64,000 bases of DNA from an uncultured delta proteobacterium (GCA_963843145.1 CAWJJC010000021.1:64001-128000), one strand, 5' to 3'. Positions 28,698 to 63,032 are shown, counted from the first letter of the stretch. Numbers and translations: made by a program. Notes: a model not told the origin generated them from the letters alone.

Positions 28698-28773
28698 GGG
28701 CCCATAGCTCAGTTGGAAGAGCCACCGGCTCATAACCGGAAGGTCCCTGGTTCGAGGCCAGGTGGGCCCACCA
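28698..28773 (+). tRNA. tRNA with CAT anticodon, most likely tRNA-Ile2 (lysidine)
   Basis: GGGCCCA/TGGGCCC acceptor stem, CCGG-CTCATAA-CCGG anticodon arm, GTTCGA, CCA; lacks initiator features; Ile2 versus elongator Met is inferred. Confidence 0.93.
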
Positions 28774-31292: not shown

Positions 31293-31662
31293 GTGGAAGT
31301 GGATCAGATGATCGCCCGCTTTCGGGCGGGAGGAAAGTCCGAGCTCCAAAGGGCAGGATGCTGGGTAACACCCAGTCCCGGTGACGGGAAGGAAAGTGCC
31401 ACAGAAAATATACCGCTCCGCCTCCGGCGGAGTAAGGGTGAAAAGGCGGGGTAAGAGCCCACCGGTATCCCGAGCGATCGGGATAGCCTGGTAAACCCCA
31501 TCCGGAGCAAGACCAAATAGGGGGGCGTTACGGGTAGCCCGCCCAAGGCCCCCGGGTTGGTTGCTTGAGGTCCGAAGCAATTCGGACTCTTAGAGGAATG
31601 ATCATCATCCCGGCCGGCGTGAGCCTCCGGGAAACAGGACTCGGCTTATGATCCACTTCCAC
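31293..31662 (+). ncRNA. rnpB: RNase P RNA, type A
   Basis: GAGGAAAGTCC, AGTGCCACAGAAA, GGTAAACCCC, ACAGGACTCGGCTTA; P1 helix GTGGAAGTGGATCA/TGATCCACTTCCAC. Confidence 0.97.
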
Positions 31663-31732
31663 CTATTTTCTTTCACCTTTATCCGCGAGGGTCAGGCTAT
31701 GCCCGCCATCGAAAAAAAATAGAGATCAGGCC

Positions 31733-53222: not shown

Positions 53223-53829
53223 TTAGACAAAACCAATCACCAGGAGAACGACGGAGGCCAAGCTGAGCGAGGCGCGAACCCAATTGGCGATTTGCAGTTT
53301 TCGGCGCTCCTCTTGTAGCGCAGCCACAGCGCTGCTCTCCAGGGCCTCGACTCTGGCATAGATCGGGAGAGTGGTGGACTTGGAGACGATCGAGGTAATC
53401 ACCCAGAGGACCAGCCCCGCCGTGAACCAGCGATTGCTGAAACCATAGAAGATGAAATAGGGCACCATGCCGACAAAGGTAATGCTGGATACTCCGATGG
53501 CATAAGGCGACCTCAAGGCGCGTGTTTTTAACGGGATTGGCGGACTTCCAAAAGTCTGTCAACAGCCCGAATGCGATTAAGCACCGGGCTGGGGTGAGGG
53601 TGGGACCATTTGAATTCACTTCAAATGGCGGGGGAGGGGAAGCCCTCTCCCGCCTCGCAAAAAGGCGTTTTTGGACTTTCTGCGAGGTCATCAGGATTAA
53701 GAAACGTTTGAAGGCGGCCTCGTCCAAATCATTCATCACCCCCTGGATCACCCCGGCGACAAATATCACAAACCCGGCACAGAGGGCGGTAGGGACGAGA
53801 AGCAGGATTTCAACCAAAGTTTGAGTCAT
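53223..53829 (-). pseudogene. 4-TM membrane protein (DUF1772-like) disrupted by a MITE
   Basis: excising 53539-53692 plus one TSD gives a continuous 148-aa frame ...AAFKRFLILLKTRALRSPYAIG... Confidence 0.85.
53539..53692. mobile_element. MITE family A, copy 2
   Basis: TIRs GGCGGACTTCCAAAAGTC / GACTTTCTGCGAGGTCATC; TSD GGGATT/AGGATT. Confidence 0.88.
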
Positions 53830-57734: not shown

Positions 57735-57954
57735 GGTTGTAGATTCGGAAGGCCTTAATGATTATTAACAGGCTCAAAATAATATTGACTCAATTTATCG
57801 ATGTAGCCAAGTTTCGACTAAAGACAATCTCTCACAGAGCACACGGAGATCGCAGAGATAAAATTATTAATTGCCGCTAACCCCGCCGGAGGCGTGAGAG
57901 GTTTTTAAAAATCGCCCTCTCAGCGATTTTTTAAAAGAAATATTCTCTTTTCCC

Positions 57955-57984
57955 TTGACCCTTAAATTTTTTGTATTTTATAAT
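57955..57984 (+). promoter_or_regulatory. sigma70 promoter of DUF488 copy 1
   Basis: TTGACC-18nt-TATAAT, followed by RBS AAGGAGG. Confidence 0.6.
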
Positions 57985-58022
57985 CTCTCTACTCAAAAGC
58001 AAAGATCTTAAAGGAGGCAACC

Positions 58023-58412
58023 TTGGCCATTCGTATTATCAGACTGGGTTCACCCCGGGAAAAAGGAGAAGGCCTTCGCCTGGGTACGGTTCGCCGGCCT
58101 CCTCGCGGGGTTCCAAAATCGGAATACGCCCGGAGAGACTTTTATGATGTCTGGCTTCCGAACCTCTCCCCCAGCGAGGACCTGCTCAAAGAAGCAAAAA
58201 AGGCCGAAGATGACCGGTCTTGGGCTGCTTTTAAGCGCAAGTTCCGGAAGGAAGCGAAAAAAACGGAGGCAAGCCGTGTCCTGGATTTGTTGGCCGCCCT
58301 TTCGCACCAGACCAATATGTCCCTTGGCTGCTACTGTGAAAATGAAAACCGCTGCCATCGCTCGGTCCTCAGAGAACTGCTGGAGGAGCGGGGCGCAAAG
58401 CTAAGTGGGTAA
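58023..58412 (+). CDS. DUF488-family protein, copy 1
   Basis: GTVRRPPRGV.K, W.PNLSPS..L, CYCENENRCHRSVL; TTG start with strong RBS. Confidence 0.88.
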   Translation: MAIRIIRLGSPREKGEGLRLGTVRRPPRGVPKSEYARRDFYDVWLPNLSPSEDLLKEAKKAEDDRSWAAFKRKFRKEAKKTEASRVLDLLAALSHQTNMSLGCYCENENRCHRSVLRELLEERGAKLSG

Positions 58413-58542
58413 ACATCCATTACCCGGCTGCGGTTCGGTAGCCTCTGGGGACCGCCTAGTGCGCATGTCCTGAGCTTGTCGAAGGAGACCCGCATGCTAG
58501 GTGGTGTGGGGAGGGGGGGTGAAAAACTCCCCCTTGCCCGAT
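58406..58542 (+). mobile_element. 5'-truncated group IIC (attC-type) intron tail, copy 1
   Basis: IEP-like C-terminus WVNIHYPAAVR*; DV ACCGCCTAGTGCG..GACCCGCATGCTAGGTGGT with CGC triad; DVI ending CCCGAT, followed by TAGG. Confidence 0.85.
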
Positions 58543-59945
58543 TAGGTGTTTTTGAGCATCTTTTGAGCTAATATACCAAATGCCTCCGTCATTGTAGGAT
58601 GTGGATGTATTGTCTGCGCGACATCTTTAAGAGTTAATTTGTTCGCCACAATCAATGCAGCCTCTCCCACCAACGCTGCTGCGTTGCCATTACAAATATT
58701 GACACCTATTATTTCTAAATTCTCTTTATTAACCACATATTGCAGATACCCCAAAGGTGTATCAGCAACTTGAGCGGCTGCATCAATCTTGTAGTCATAA
58801 ACACCTATCATAACATCATAGCCTTCTTGAATGGCCTTAGCTTCTGTAAACCCCGCAGTAGCGATCTCCGGTTCAGAAAACAATACCCACGAGTTCTTGG
58901 AAAAATCCACTTTCTGTTTATTTTCCGTCATAATATTTACAGCAACAAGATGTGCTCCATATGTGGCAACATGAGCAAATTTTGGCCCATCAATTACATC
59001 ACCAGTGGCATAAATACCCTTTGTAGAAGTCTCAAGAAATTCATTAACAATGATACCTTTGCGATTGAATTCTACATTGGCCTTATCCAAATCAAGGGAT
59101 TCAACATTGGGCACTTTACCAGTAACAACAAGTACTTTCGCAAAATTGTCTTTGCGTTCAGTACCATTTGCTTCGGTAAATATTACATTATAATGTCCAT
59201 CTGATTTATTTATTTCCTGGACTCTTGATGATGTGTAAATTTCAACACCGGAGCTTGCGAGCGCATTACCAATTATTGAGATATATTCTGCCTCAACAAT
59301 GCCTGATAAAATACTATCCATTATTTCAACTATTGTACACTTTATACCCAATTTTGCTAGCATTTGAGCTAACTCGACACCGATTGGTCCACCACCAACA
59401 ATGAGTAATGTTTCCGGAAGCTTATCTTGAGAAAAAAGAACTTCGGTGGTAAGAACATCTTGAACAGAATTTCCTTTGAATGGTGGTATAAAGGAGTGAG
59501 CACCAGTGGCAATAATAGCTTTGGTAAAAGCATAGTTCTCTTTTCGTCCAGTATCCTTTTCTTCAATTATTAATTCATTGCTGGAAACAAATTTTGCATG
59601 CCCGGCAACAAACTCAAGAGTTGGCAAATTATTTACCATCTGCATAGCTCCAGCAGATCGTTTTTCAAGAATAAAATTCATTTTATTCTTAATCTGATTC
59701 CATGCTTTTTCTCTATCCTCAGATGACCAGGTTCCCTCTGCCAAATATTTACGTTCCGTTGAAAATTCATCAGACCAATGCCTGATAATTTTTGACGGGA
59801 TGCAACCAACAAATAGACATGCACCTCCAAGTTTTCCTGATTCTTCCACTAACAAAACAGATTTGCCTTGAGAAGCTAACTGCATAGCGGCTGGTGTCCC
59901 GCCAGGTCCTCCTCCAATTACGATAACATCAAATTTAGTATTCAT
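58542..59945 (-). CDS. class I pyridine nucleotide-disulfide oxidoreductase (dihydrolipoyl dehydrogenase family), AT-rich, cassette-like
   Basis: GGGPGG, GGACLFVGCIPSK, GGGPIG.E, ATGD, HPHPTMTEA. Confidence 0.93.
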   Translation of the reverse strand: MNTKFDVIVIGGGPGGTPAAMQLASQGKSVLLVEESGKLGGACLFVGCIPSKIIRHWSDEFSTERKYLAEGTWSSEDREKAWNQIKNKMNFILEKRSAGAMQMVNNLPTLEFVAGHAKFVSSNELIIEEKDTGRKENYAFTKAIIATGAHSFIPPFKGNSVQDVLTTEVLFSQDKLPETLLIVGGGPIGVELAQMLAKLGIKCTIVEIMDSILSGIVEAEYISIIGNALASSGVEIYTSSRVQEINKSDGHYNVIFTEANGTERKDNFAKVLVVTGKVPNVESLDLDKANVEFNRKGIIVNEFLETSTKGIYATGDVIDGPKFAHVATYGAHLVAVNIMTENKQKVDFSKNSWVLFSEPEIATAGFTEAKAIQEGYDVMIGVYDYKIDAAAQVADTPLGYLQYVVNKENLEIIGVNICNGNAAALVGEAALIVANKLTLKDVAQTIHPHPTMTEAFGILAQKMLKNT

Positions 59946-60178
59946 AAAATACTCCTTTATAATTTAAAGTGATGTTTCCCACGAAAAGTGGATACAGCTA
60001 ACAAGTTATTCTAAAGTTTTCTGTATCCCTCTCTTCCAAAAGGTACTCTCTGGGAAGAGAGACCCCTGTCCTTTGTCTATTTTGGTTGACTTATGGTTTG
60101 GCCAACACATTCGATATGTTTGTAACCTAGTTTTAAAAGAAAAATATTCTCTTGACAAATAATTTGTTATCTACAACC

Positions 60179-60568
60179 TTGGCCATTAGTATTATCAGAC
60201 TGGGTTCACCCCGGGAAAAAGGAGAAGGCCTTCGCCTGGGTACGGTTCGCCGGCCTCCTCGCGGGGTTCCAAAATCGGAATACGCCGGGATAGACTCTTA
60301 TGATGTCTGGCTTCCGAACCTCTCCCCCAGCGAGGACCTGCTCAAGGAAGCAAAAAAGGCCCAGGATGACCGGTCTTGGGCTGCTTTTAAGCGCAAGTTC
60401 CGGAAGGAAGCGAAAAAACCGGAGGCAAGCCGGGTCCTGGATTTGTTGGCCGCCCTTTCGCACCAGACCAATATGTCCCTTGGCTGCTACTGTGAAAATG
60501 AAAACCGCTGCCATCGCTCGGTCCTCAGAGAACTGCTGGAGGAGCGGGGCGCAAAGCTAAGTGGGTAA
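60179..60568 (+). CDS. DUF488-family protein, copy 2 (RBS absent)
   Basis: near-identical to 58023-58412; the upstream segment containing AAGGAGG is missing. Confidence 0.75.
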   Translation: MAISIIRLGSPREKGEGLRLGTVRRPPRGVPKSEYAGIDSYDVWLPNLSPSEDLLKEAKKAQDDRSWAAFKRKFRKEAKKPEASRVLDLLAALSHQTNMSLGCYCENENRCHRSVLRELLEERGAKLSG

Positions 60569-60697
60569 ACATCCATTACCCGGCTGTGGCTCGGTAGCCT
60601 CTGGGAACCGCCTAGTGCGCATGTCCTGAGCTTGTCGAAGGGGACCCGCATGCTAGGTGGTGTGGGGAGGGGGGGTGAAAACGCCCCCTTACCCGAT
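60562..60697 (+). mobile_element. 5'-truncated group IIC (attC-type) intron tail, copy 2
   Basis: WVNIHYPAVAR*; GAACCGCC DV; DVI CCTTACCCGAT, followed by TAGG. Confidence 0.85.
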
Positions 60698-60730
60698 TAG
60701 GCCCGACCGTGTCAGATGTCGGGCCTGAGC

Positions 60731-61075
60731 TTACTCTTGCCTCACTATATCGACCGAGATCTCCACCGCCGGAATCGTTCCTCTGTTCTCAAGCCAGTGT
60801 GTGGTGTTCCTATCCTCAGGCCAGCCTACTCCCGGGCCATAGTCCGTAGCGACTCCATTTCGATGGTCAGTGATCGTTCCTTGCAGTATGTAGACGGTGC
60901 CTGGTCTGTCTTTATGGTCGTGAATCGGGCCGAAGACGCCTCCAGGCTCGATGGTCACCATACGCATTCGAAGTTGGCGCCCTGCCAGGCCCTCGATCTC
61001 AGGGCCAAGGTCAACCGTTGCAAGTAACTTCACCGTAACACCTTTCGTCTCAGGTGCTACCTGTTCGTTGCTCAT
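60731..61075 (-). CDS. cupin-domain protein
   Basis: HDH...G..YILQG...H; HW.EN; RBS GAGGAG. Confidence 0.85.
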   Translation of the reverse strand: MSNEQVAPETKGVTVKLLATVDLGPEIEGLAGRQLRMRMVTIEPGGVFGPIHDHKDRPGTVYILQGTITDHRNGVATDYGPGVGWPEDRNTTHWLENRGTIPAVEISVDIVRQE

Positions 61076-61097
61076 CGTGCTCTCCTCTCTATGATTT

Positions 61098-61976
61098 CTA
61101 ATTTGCTTCATCTGGATAATGTTTTTCTAAGCACTTATCACAAATTCCGTGGCTGAATCGGGCTTCTGAATGATCAGAAATGTATTTTTCAAGTTGGCTC
61201 CAATCCCCTTTGTCGTCGCGAATTTCTTTACAATACATGCATATAGGTAGAATACCTTGTAATGTTTTAATCTCGTCAATTGCTTTTTGAAGGGCATCAT
61301 TTTTCTCCTGAAGCAATTTTTCCGAGTTTAAGACCAGCTTGGTAGCAATAAAGGCAATAATTAAAGATATCAAAACACCTGAAATCGATAAAATAAGAGC
61401 GATCTTTTCAAGATTTGATTGCTTTGTTGCAGCAAGTTCGATGAAGTTATCAGCCTTGTTTCTTGCATATGAGGTTAATTCCAGCATTTTAGCCTCAAGT
61501 TTTGCTGCATGTTCAGCCCCATTTGTTTTGGTTATAAGAATAGCTTCTTGTTTATTGCCTGAATTAAGAAGTCTGACCACGTTTTCTCGGATGGGTCTCC
61601 AATTTTCAAAAAGTTGTCTGCTTTGTTTCTCAAGTGTCTTTCCTTCCTCACCGAGAATATCCTTTTGGATGGTATCAAGCTGCTGGTACACATTTTGTTC
61701 GTTTTCAGCTACGGCATTTAACGTATGCTTTATCTCGTCAGGAGAATTCGCCAAGACAACATCTTCCATGCTGCGATGTATTTTTGTTATGTTAAGAGCC
61801 GCAAGAAGGGAGGCATTTGAGACTACAAGTGGATGTTCATAAATCTTTACTGTGAGATCACCTAATGTGCGTAACCCTATTATTAAAACGATTCCAAAAG
61901 AGACAAATAAAAAGATGATGAGCAAAAAGCTTAGGGGTAATCTTTGTTTTTTAATTATATTTAAAAGAGAGCTCAT
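61098..61976 (-). CDS. membrane protein with four-helix-bundle sensor and C-terminal PICxxCKxIR..SHGICDKC domain
   Basis: 2 TM; IYEHPLVVSNA periplasmic helix; Cys-rich tail; AT-rich. Confidence 0.85.
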   Translation of the reverse strand: MSSLLNIIKKQRLPLSFLLIIFLFVSFGIVLIIGLRTLGDLTVKIYEHPLVVSNASLLAALNITKIHRSMEDVVLANSPDEIKHTLNAVAENEQNVYQQLDTIQKDILGEEGKTLEKQSRQLFENWRPIRENVVRLLNSGNKQEAILITKTNGAEHAAKLEAKMLELTSYARNKADNFIELAATKQSNLEKIALILSISGVLISLIIAFIATKLVLNSEKLLQEKNDALQKAIDEIKTLQGILPICMYCKEIRDDKGDWSQLEKYISDHSEARFSHGICDKCLEKHYPDEAN

Positions 61977-61993: not shown

Positions 61994-62054
61994 TTTTTAT
62001 GCTAGCTCAGCGACGCGCCGCTTTTGGCGCGTCCGCTGGAGCGCTGGGTTGACC
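61994..62054 (-). other. attC-like site with degenerate R'
   Basis: minus strand GGTCAAC-CCAGCG-CTCCAG-CGGACGCGCCAAAAGCGGCGCGTCG-CTGAG-CTAGC-ATAAAAA. Confidence 0.7.
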
Positions 62055-62641
62055 ATCGTCTCGACTCCCTCGAGTCTGGCACCGGCGAAGAGCGTCGCGA
62101 GCTCCTCCGGGTGGCAGAGCGGGAAACGGACGCCTTCGTCCAGGCTCGAAGCGTCCGCATCAAGCTCGGTCGCGGCATCCCAGAAGAACCGCATGATCTC
62201 CATCTTCCCGGCGTAATCCCAGACGTACGCCACGATCATGCCACCCTTGCCCGTCACCCGCGCCATCTCGGCGAGAGCGGCTCGCTGATCGGGAACAAAG
62301 TTCAGGACCAGACCCGAGACCACGACATCGACCGACCCGTCACCGAGAGGAATCGCCGTCGCGCTGCCTTGGTAAAGCACCACCCGGCCCGCGAGATTCT
62401 CGGTTGCGGTCTTGAGAAATCCCTCCGAAGGTTCGACGCCAGCGACGGAGGACGGCGGGCAGCGGTCCACGGTCGCCGCGCACAGCGCCCCTGTACCGCA
62501 ACCCACATCCAGCCACTTCCGGCTGGCCGGAATTCCCAACCATGAGAGAAATGCTGGCGCGATTTGACGACTCCACCGGCCAACGTACTGCTCATAGGGG
62601 CTTCCGCGCTCCCAAGTTTCGGACACCTGTTTATGGGCCAT
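61997..62641 (-). CDS. class I SAM-dependent methyltransferase, apparently C-terminally truncated, reading into attC
   Basis: YEQYVGRWS, WLDVGCGTG, LVLNFVPD, YVWDY; last residues VNPALQRT... are translated attC. Confidence 0.8.
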   Translation of the reverse strand: MAHKQVSETWERGSPYEQYVGRWSRQIAPAFLSWLGIPASRKWLDVGCGTGALCAATVDRCPPSSVAGVEPSEGFLKTATENLAGRVVLYQGSATAIPLGDGSVDVVVSGLVLNFVPDQRAALAEMARVTGKGGMIVAYVWDYAGKMEIMRFFWDAATELDADASSLDEGVRFPLCHPEELATLFAGARLEGVETMVNPALQRTRQKRRVAELA

Positions 62642-62667
62642 TGCAAACCTCCTACGCGTCCATAGAT

Positions 62668-62757
62668 GCCCAATGCGGCGTTGACCCGTGGCACGCAGCT
62701 TGCGGGGCCGGAGGCTATGGAAGCAAGTGACATCGGTGTCCAATGGACTGGTTGGTG
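62668..62757 (-). other. attC-like site (90 bp)
   Basis: minus strand CACCAAC..TTGGAC......GTCAA..ATTGGGC; homolog of 48959-49048. Confidence 0.6.
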
Positions 62758-62787
62758 CCGCCAGCGACGGCGCCGGGCTGCTTGGTT

Positions 62788-63002
62788 GGGGTCGGACATA
62801 ATGCTGTTAACTTAAGGGTATTTCCCCTGCCTACAGCGTCACCCCGGCGAAAGCCGGGGTCCAGAAAGCCTGAAAAATCTGGATTCCGGCCATTCGACTA
62901 GGCTCATGGCCCTGAGTAAGCCGAAGGGCTTCCGCCGGAATGTCGGCAACGACTTAATTTTTGGACTAAATCTGTTAAGTTAACGGTATTAGGTCCGAGC
63001 CC
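62788..63002. mobile_element. MITE-like element with 28-bp imperfect TIRs (inner part IS4-like) and nested palindromes
   Basis: GGGGTCGGACATAATGCTGTTAACTTAA vs reverse complement GGGCTCGGACCTAATACCGTTAACTTAA (24/28). Confidence 0.75.
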
Positions 63003-63032
63003 GAATTTAGTCGTGGCCCTACCCTAATTTCC

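Follow-up and report, generated by a model that had tools for sequence, protein, structure and literature searches.

How did an ordinary chromosomal gene come to end in the last piece of a group II intron, and how did the resulting unit come to stand twice in close succession beside two different genes? This question is raised by a 64,000-nucleotide (nt) stretch of DNA from an uncultured delta proteobacterium (GCA_963843145.1 CAWJJC010000021.1:64001-128000; hereafter the window, with positions counted from its first letter), in which a gene of the DUF488 family is fused to an intron tail and the fused unit occurs in two near-identical copies. The genome assembly behind it comprises 5.35 Mb in 32 contigs and is 97.9% complete with 6.9% contamination. 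Our overall reading, to which we give about an even chance, is that gene and intron were fused once through microhomology and that the unit was then copied by DNA recombination to a place beside a second resident intron stump. The two ends of the second copy point to different processes: its right boundary, an intron end at the R'' box of a cassette, points to intron biology, and its left boundary, in untranscribed DNA, points to DNA copying. The fused unit itself is a fossil of intron and recombination activity and no working element. Its parts are as follows.

58023..58412, plus strand: DUF488-N3a copy 1 (160.6 bits on PF22751), with a TTG start, at the ancestral position, probably functional
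60179..60568 (or from an alternative start at 60152), plus strand: DUF488 copy 2, decaying (157.8 bits on PF22751)
58406..58414, plus strand: gene/intron junction, a 9-nt microhomology TGGGTAAAC that holds the DUF488 stop codon
58406..58542, plus strand: intron tail 1, recognised by homology to the copies on contigs C6 and C27 of the same genome and to relatives' introns, and by DNA folding
60562..60697, plus strand: intron tail 2, with the same junction, the same domain V extension and the branch A at 60691

The repeat copies 58018-58546 and 60174-60701, whose near-identity had been pointed out in an earlier note made from the sequence alone, differ upon alignment by 15 substitutions and one 1-nt indel (~97% identity). 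Both begin 5 nt before the TTG start, run through the gene and then through about 135 nt ending in CCCGAT (58542 and 60697), and share another 4 nt (TAGG) past the intron end before identity breaks off into different flanks, just as the note had described. Copy 1 is followed on its right by the stop of a disulfide oxidoreductase gene on the minus strand, copy 2 by a hairpin and a cupin gene that is also on the minus strand. The gene part (395 nt) holds 9 of the 16 differences and the tail (130 nt) the other 7 (Fisher p = 0.08); an excess in the last 25 nt of the tail (3/25 vs 13/500, p = 0.035) was considered as a sign of separate ancestry and, being post hoc and composed of singleton states, was not used. 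Since the tail occurs four times in the genome by BLAST (in the two window copies and, as tail alone, on C6 with 87% and on C27 with 75% identity), it is not a chance resemblance. The exact 24-mer across the gene/intron junction found 0 matches in metagenome contigs, and none of 20 relatives held another DUF488-tail chimera, their matches spanning gene or tail and never both.

The similarity does not begin at 58018, as had been supposed, but extends upstream to 57928 and 60131, and the following features are needed to describe this left end.

57762..57950, strand not assigned: short multi-copy repeat resembling a miniature inverted-repeat transposable element (MITE), with 46 BLAST hits on 13 contigs (E ≤ 1e-8, self included)
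57955..57984, plus strand: predicted ancestral sigma-70-type promoter of DUF488, TTGACC-18-TATAAT, 11/12 matches in a consensus scan
58010-58017, plus strand: ribosome-binding site AAAGGAGG of copy 1, upstream of the TTG start
60131..60173, plus strand: degenerate upstream copy, in which the final 23 nt of the repeat, TTGAC and some patchy remnants are left

Positions 57928-57950, the last 23 nt of a repeat that is also present in relatives, form the left end of the duplicated stretch and match 60131-60153 at 21 of 23 positions, followed in both places by TTGAC (the match in copy 2 being 60131-60157). The score of this local alignment is 35, compared to 18.0 ± 2.5 for shuffled sequences of which 0 of 500 reached it, and the motif of 23 nt plus TTGAC occurs only at these two sites in the 5.35-Mb genome. 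The 20 nt that separate the motif from copy 2 align weakly to the corresponding 67 nt of copy 1, with 65 of 2000 shuffles scoring as high, and through this net loss of 47 nt copy 2 is left without the -10 box and the ribosome-binding site. The duplicated stretch is hence at least 57928-58546, including DNA upstream of the -35 box. Because it reaches untranscribed DNA upstream of the promoter, copying at the DNA level is favoured over retrocopying of a messenger RNA (mRNA), and the mobilisation by reverse transcription or template switching that the earlier note had offered as a route is weakened.

Both copies share the junction, the truncation and the domain V extension, which shows that the chimera formed only once. 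Gene and intron are joined within the 9-nt microhomology at the stop codon. On the side of the gene, the native DUF488 3' end reads TGGGTAAAG in genome G004 and is followed by GGTAAAC just after the stop in G005; the C-termini of orthologues are ERGAKVV, ERGAKLV, GADLIG, RGADLA and similar, with ERGAKL/V native in 4 further orthologues and RGADL in G004 and at locus L038. On the side of the intron, copies at 6 loci end their reverse-transcriptase open reading frame (ORF) in TGGGTAAAC and read TGGGTAAACATCC. The idea that the intron had supplied the stop codon was not borne out: it is native to DUF488, because the tail-less G004 orthologue stops at the same position and with the same TGGGTAA. 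An internally deleted mini-intron on C6 has its 3' deletion breakpoint at the very same GGGTAA, which forms the foot of a GGGTAA/TTACCC hairpin. This site may be a hot spot of breakage or template switching, or else C6 and the window tails may share a truncated ancestor. The C6 mini-intron adjoins L003 1-1383 on the minus strand (G000:C6, G000 being the window's own genome), where it forms an intron relic within the leader of a defence-type reverse transcriptase.

What remains of the intron itself can be resolved as follows.

58406-58441, plus strand: remnant of the reverse-transcriptase ORF in tail 1, its frame open and ending in WVNIHYPAAVR and a stop
58451-58505, plus strand: domain V of tail 1, folding into a 9-bp helix, a 2-nt bulge on the 3' side and a 4-bp helix
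58464-58486 and 60620-60642, plus strand: domain V loop extension of 23 nt, which folds as a small additional hairpin at the tip of domain V
58508-58539, plus strand: domain VI of tail 1, folding into a hairpin in which the base 7 nt before the end bulges out

The end resembling an intron-encoded protein (WVNIHYPAxxR and a stop) had been recognised correctly, with relatives' ORFs ending in QGLLSVKDLWVNIHYPATAR before their stop, and the assignment of domains V and VI to the tail is confirmed by DNA folding and by the Rfam matches of homologues. In group II introns, domain V is a helix of ~34 nt that has a 2-nt bulge and a catalytic triad, domain VI is a hairpin whose branch A bulges out 7-8 nt before the 3' end, and complete members start with a GUGYG-type 5' end. 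Likewise, the likely branch point is indeed changed from A to G in copy 1 (58536) and is kept as A in copy 2 (60691) and in the family. Searches of the window with Rfam, both at the gathering score and at E ≤ 10 over 57900-60800, gave no Intron_gpII match on the tails, which are missed because of the 23-nt insertion in domain V. The C27 tail copy, which is free of these 23 nt, scores 37.1 bits (E = 2.8e-4) on RF00029 Intron_gpII (cut-off 40), and a homologue in G014 without the extension reaches 41.1 bits. A match to RT-9 RNA at 60106-60193 (21 bits, E = 3.3) was taken as chance. The Rfam alignment of the C27 homologue has CGC at the position of the catalytic triad (AGC), which we take to be a mark of class C. 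In relatives, the elements that hold such tails match group-II-D1D4-3 (132.7 bits in G016, 107 in G002 and 93.2 in G003) and also group-II-D1D4-1, they share with the C6 and C27 copies a 5' end starting GTGTACGC, and the ORF of the G016 element scores 336 bits on TIGR04416, the model of group II reverse transcriptase/maturase (cut-off 300). The full-length intron with such a tail that the earlier note had asked for has related counterparts with D1-D4 and reverse transcriptase in relatives and none at the window copies, which show no D1-D4 match and no homology to the 5' part of the intron family and keep only the last 11 codons and the stop of the reverse transcriptase. The tail is evidently a genuine 3' end of a group II (class C-like) intron, and neither of the two tails can splice or move by itself.

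The 23-nt insertion in domain V is present in both copies, as had been seen, but is not private to them: it is a trait of the lineage that recurs in G009, a member of a different genus, and, by an exact-pattern search, in 20 metagenome contigs, at whose loci neither DUF488 nor the cupin gene occurs. Tails of relatives were aligned to the window in 5 cases, and in all 5 the alignment is interrupted right around these 23 nt. Covariation within the extended domain V amounts to 1 doubly changed pair of 14, from 14 sequences only. Many of the extension variants contain one more hairpin, inserted where domain V passes into domain VI (L066; L069-L088), and extension plus second hairpin characterise an intron sub-lineage that RF00029 does not detect. 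Upstream of the intron tail of G009:C38, positions ~2430-2819 of L066 are a run of N. An apparent joint of 58487 to 60619 in the sequencing runs was rejected as the tail of another organism with 36 other letters between.

Both DUF488 ORFs encode 129 amino acids and match PF22751 (DUF488-N3a) over profile positions 1-118 of 118 (cut-off 27 bits), which confirms the ORF that had been assigned to each copy. Promoter and ribosome-binding site are kept in copy 1; upstream of copy 2 not just the latter is missing, as already known, but also the -10 box. The promoter stretch 57943-58017 is 87-90% conserved in G002, G003 and G005; it adjoins the same ABC-transporter gene in G002 and G003, where DUF488 is lost or truncated, and precedes DUF488 in G005. 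Because the promoter adjoins this same transporter gene in G002 and G003, the place of copy 1 is judged to be the ancestral location of DUF488. Tail-less orthologues exist in G005 (92% DNA identity over 58010-58392, plus promoter), in G004 (90% over 58132-58413) and in four genomes of genus g4 (~70%), and a metagenome contig is 94% identical over 57995-58404 and divergent beyond. In the coding part, 7 of the 9 differences between the copies alter 6 residues (R4S, R37G, R38I, F40S, E62Q and T81P in copy 2 relative to copy 1). Two of these, R38I and F40S, fall into the RDFYD motif that is intact in copy 1, and F40 is invariant in all 8 orthologues that cover the position. Each copy mixes derived and ancestral states. 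Copy 1 is probably the working gene with its tail as a passive 3' untranslated region, copy 2 looks to be a decaying duplicate, and both tails are drifting. Divergent from the DUF488 promoter, an alkyltransferase-like gene (MGMT DNA-binding type) is found in G002, G003 and G005 (L051 673-1068, L052 6061-6475, L056 5667-6020) and is missing at the window locus, where the short repeat 57762-57950 takes its place; this neighbourhood hints at a DNA-repair pairing.

The right boundaries raise the question of what the two tails are docked to. The earlier note had placed each of them at the inverse core site of a different gene, and the flanking features are these.

60697..61090, minus strand: cupin gene unit (ORF 60731-61075, 114 amino acids), an integron cassette cut at both ends
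58542..59945, minus strand: pyridine-nucleotide disulfide oxidoreductase gene (Pfam Pyr_redox_2 and Pyr_redox_dim), hereafter the reductase gene
59946..60130, strand not assigned: unique AT-rich spacer upstream of the reductase gene, without any other match in the genome

For the cupin gene this holds, with tail 2 ending exactly at GT/TAGG of the R'' box. Copies of the cupin unit that are 94-96% identical occur on contigs C14, C38 and C25 of G002, and one more in the own genome on C11 (24487-24846). Two of the G002 copies are followed by an element of ~80 nt with RYYYAAC and GTTRRRY ends. When folded, its bottom strand shows R and L boxes in which single bases bulge out, and the next ORF begins ~20 nt after the element, which is an attC site in a cassette array. 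Where G002 reads CGTGT/TAGG, the window reads intron end/TAGG, that is, the R'' box of the cupin gene is cut at GCCTA/A by tail 2. Loose ends of cupin units in metagenomes likewise show attC-like sequence and GTTAGGC-type R' boundaries. The cupin gene is proven to be a true integron cassette with an attC that was the target of tail 2. As excerpts of PMC7923331 and PMC3001079 describe it, group IIC-attC introns target TTGT/T in R'', on the bottom strand and antisense to the cassette. In the family, T follows the intron in all 8 tails whose 3' end is intact, and T also opens 15 of the 17 readable flanks among the 20 metagenome variants, mostly as TAGC or TGGC. The cupin gene belongs to no NCBIfam family, and its unit has its own 5' cassette boundary missing. 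The cupin cassette is extremely abundant in metagenomes of soil and sediment, with a summed contig depth of up to ~3300 in one run and with many different flanks (L053, L054, L055).

For the reductase gene the same claim stands only in part: the letters ACCTA/A are there, and an intact relative was not found. Its stop overlaps the intron end and these R''-like letters, its C-terminus is full-length, and its best NCBIfam match is lipoamide dehydrogenase with 338 bits, under the cut-off of 409 bits. Together with the spacer it has a guanine-cytosine (GC) content of 35-42% compared to ~55-60% around (GC profile), and it is evidently a foreign gene. The segment between the two copies has no DNA match in G001-G005 or in the rest of the own genome, and relatives of the reductase in genome contigs are limited to 3 distant N-terminal matches (44-53% over ~35 residues). 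Folding of the spacer revealed no attC-like structure (z = -0.05 for 60080-60135, z = -1.1 for the hairpin 60029-60061), and synteny does not resume past the variable region in G002, G003 or G005. Further along, an AT-rich gene for a 4HB_MCP-type sensor (61098-61976, 36-39% GC) abuts the ribosome-binding site of the cupin gene, and a methyltransferase gene of 65% GC (61997-62743) follows 20 nt after it, a mosaic without matches in G001-G005.

Taken together, we propose a course of three steps. Introns of one lineage would have inserted antisense at GT/T of the R'' box behind cassette-type genes, as is seen at the cupin gene and presumed at the reductase gene. A single illegitimate event would then have fused the resident DUF488 to the last ~135 nt of such an intron at the junction observed today, presumably either by deletion between short repeats or by microhomology-guided joining of an abortive, 5'-truncated complementary DNA (cDNA), with the loss of the ribozyme body, the reverse-transcriptase gene and the remainder of the attC. 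Excerpts of the respective sources describe error-prone 5' joining when only the intron 3' end is ligated to the target (PMC3280974) as well as 5'-truncated intron fragments in cassette arrays (PMC7923331). At least 620 bp, from the upstream repeat end through promoter and DUF488 to the tail, would finally have been copied as DNA to a site left of another intron stump, resident at the R'' box of the cupin gene. This extent is read directly from the alignment. As for the mechanism, repair synthesis or gene conversion would be likeliest, with priming in the tail common to both sites, a leftward run and closure by end-joining; alternatively, a circle with the AT-rich reductase segment would have integrated by a single crossover. 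Two independent neighbouring insertions are proposed; several same-orientation tails occur on single metagenome contigs (1.1-1.5 kb apart on L084, L086 and L087). No cassette can result from such an arrangement because DUF488 replaces the 5' part of the intron, no attC is kept, and copy 2 lacks a ribosome-binding site and an invariant residue; the earlier suggestion of a snapshot of cassette assembly is therefore not supported.

Several observations weigh against the course just described. No full or 5'-bearing second intron is found at the cupin site, where we only infer a second resident stump, and the two tails show no separate ancestry, their 7 differences being singletons relative to the family. 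The R'' box of the reductase gene is a resemblance of letters only. The cassette context is historical because the genome has no integrase and no intact attC: the best hit to the integron integrase model TIGR02249 in the own genome reaches 86 bits against a cut-off of 265 (compared to 4 of 21 genomes searched over the cut-off, and 258 bits in the same-genus G002), the rest of the cupin attC when sought in the own genome yielded only 26-nt terminal hairpin matches, and no attC-sized gaps separate neighbouring window genes. The locus is thus a wrecked, integrase-less variable region and not an array. The upstream part of copy 2 needs several small deletions in 67 nt compared to one 1-nt indel in the other 529 nt, an imbalance that is odd for plain duplication followed by drift. 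Finally, no read or contig examined spans both copies (the longest bridging contig measures 426 nt; the comparison with sequencing runs covered contigs only, with a best share of 0.26), and the same picture would arise if an assembler had joined the chromosome to a circle of 2156 bp or to a strain variant.

A similar arrangement exists elsewhere. The metagenome loci L075 (1-429) and L076 (285-712) have 429 nt in common that are 98.4% identical before their flanks differ. The shared part consists of at least 280 nt that do not resemble the reference intron and, after them, a tail of the same lineage as the window tails, and its identity ends 4 nt past the intron 3' end (TAGC). The two loci may be alleles from recombination between intron copies, because L075 begins at a contig end and leaves the shared extent open-ended. 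This pair shows that cargo plus tail beside different R''-like flanks is not unique to the window.

The right boundaries of the two window copies, both at the intron 3' end plus a TRRRY-type flank, would suit a helper-driven, RNA-mediated retrocopy, in which the unit was copied into DNA and the cDNA end was end-joined upstream, making gene plus tail a non-autonomous passenger akin to short interspersed nuclear elements (SINEs). We consider this reading unlikely. The tail has no domains I-IV, among them domain IV, which is the site bound by the intron reverse transcriptase; trans-assembled reverse splicing of such a stump is undocumented; and the 23 nt and the -35 box that were copied along lie upstream of the predicted promoter, so a normal DUF488 mRNA was not the template. 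The same pattern in the unrelated pair L075/L076 speaks for it, except that this pair may, as said, represent two recombination alleles, and so do other introns with open reverse-transcriptase frames in the genome and the patchy 5' deletions of copy 2, which could be template jumps. Linear-intron retrohoming with error-prone 5' joining is moreover established, according to excerpts of PMC3280974. A broader idea would make domain V-VI stumps portable 3' docking ends by which a ribozyme and a reverse transcriptase acting in trans paste upstream RNA beside the R'' boxes of cassettes; it is fitted by two independent cases, the window and L075/L076, with identity ending 4 nt past the intron end in each, and we hold it to be rather improbable.

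Foreign DNA is the starting point of another pair of explanations, to which we jointly assign a modest chance well below that of the course proposed above. In a Campbell-type event, the AT-rich reductase segment would have come with a diverged DUF488-tail copy and entered by a single crossover in the shared 0.6 kb; in an insertion variant, foreign DNA would have produced a long target duplication with its right edge near the intron end by chance. The layout A - foreign DNA - A' is the product expected of single-crossover integration, the reductase and its spacer have their deviating GC content and are absent from G001-G005, the derived and ancestral states in each copy are compatible with two alleles, and the different upstream stretch of copy 2 could be the donor version. 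A chimera beside two R''-like ends is still needed, though, which merely moves the problem to the donor; a right boundary within 4 nt of the intron end would arise by chance at about 8 in 620; and no donor-like sequence was found, with 0 metagenome contigs holding the junction. That a since-lost integron integrase recombined at a hybrid pseudo-core (GAT-TAGGY, like G/TTRRRY) and moved the unit or its neighbours appears very improbable to us. At both copies a core-site-like sequence lies within 1 nt of the breakpoint, the break in the L075/L076 pair is at an analogous point, and relatives do have integrases, but the own genome has none, an A occupies the site where the conserved first T belongs, site-specific exchange would not duplicate a 0.6-kb unit, and integrases cut R' and not R'' in the account available from PMC7923331. 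Least of all do we believe in an assembly artefact in which two strain variants, or a small circle and the chromosome, were threaded through the shared 0.5-kb repeat. The 32-contig assembly with its 6.9% contamination and the unspanned copies would allow for it. Opposed to this are the 16 differences between the copies, the distinct flanks on all four sides and the 1.6-kb unique segment linking them, and also a 151-nt contig (0 mismatches) bridging tail 1 and the reductase gene and a 426-nt contig (1 mismatch) bridging spacer and copy 2, which come from two runs of one study that may be the source sample.

The proposed fusion and DNA-level copying can be compared to several known systems. Insertions of long interspersed nuclear element 1 (LINE-1) that are truncated at the 5' end carry microhomology at their 5' junction. 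Linear-intron retrohoming, judged from excerpts of PMC3280974, resembles the locus in its precise 3' junction and its truncated, microhomology-bearing 5' junction; unlike the locus, it and LINE-1 retrotransposition were shown in eukaryotic cells or assays and have no resident upstream gene as cargo. Reverse transcriptases of the IIC-attC lineage form one monophyletic clade and lack an endonuclease domain. Group IIC-attC introns (for example S.ma.I2, in the work of Quiroga 2008 and Leon & Roy 2009 to which PMC3001079 and PMC7923331 refer) share with the locus the antisense insertion at GT/T of R'' between the cassette ORF and the bulk of the attC, the CGC at the triad position, the insertion after hairpins and the occurrence outside complete integrons, whereas the locus keeps only the last ~135 nt, has the 23-nt domain V extension and carries a host gene in place of the 5' part. 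The truncated fragments UHB.F1 and H.ha.F1/F2 in cassette arrays or clusters of attC sites lacking integron integrases (CALINs) are also 3' ends only with degenerate reverse-transcriptase ORFs in a cassette context without integrase, which the excerpts of PMC7923331 ascribe to incomplete reverse transcription; at our locus, in contrast, microhomology joins the truncation point to the stop codon of a host gene that is intact, and the unit is found twice beside two genes. The cassette-genesis model of Leon & Roy (as described in PMC7923331 and PMC3001079) has in common with the locus that intron copies serve as portable homology to join unrelated DNA. It does not fit the geometry of the locus, however, since in the model a gene is joined to an attC via an intact, spliceable intron, whereas here the gene replaces the 5' half of the intron, in the orientation of the intron and without any attC.

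The component parts, i.e., a fragment of an IIC-attC-type intron, an integron cassette and a DUF488 gene, are thus of known kinds. Unusual are the fusion of an intact resident gene to an intron stump, the presence of this unit beside two cassette-type genes and the domain V extension hidden from Rfam, and the open-access literature searched (supplements excluded) yielded no description of a gene-stump unit of this kind. It has long been suspected that IIC-attC introns shuffle genes and build cassettes, and natural intermediates are scarce. The locus offers a base-level view of an intron fused to an ordinary chromosomal gene by a 9-nt microhomology, with the unit placed beside two cassette genes. 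Even if only ordinary recombination was at work, intron stumps would act as portable homology that rearranges variable regions. Copying via RNA, if true, would be a new mode of mobility, and docking of such stumps, if true, would amount to a bacterial analogue of SINE/LINE-style transduction, by which genes are duplicated in a new way. As by-products, we obtained a conserved domain V loop extension that current Rfam models miss and a cupin cassette of very high abundance in soil and sediment metagenomes.

Apart from the repeat at the left end of the duplicated stretch, the window has two further families of short repeats at 53530-53705 (33 hits in the own genome, self included) and 62660-63010 (36 hits, counted likewise), the latter with a 28-nt inverted repeat (62788-62815 / 62975-63002). 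All three families have dozens more matches in relatives of the same genus; they look MITE-like, and the genome looks rich in repeats and prone to rearrangement. Elsewhere the window contains an RNase P class A RNA (31296-31663, 313.7 bits) and tRNA genes at 42-114 and 28698-28770.

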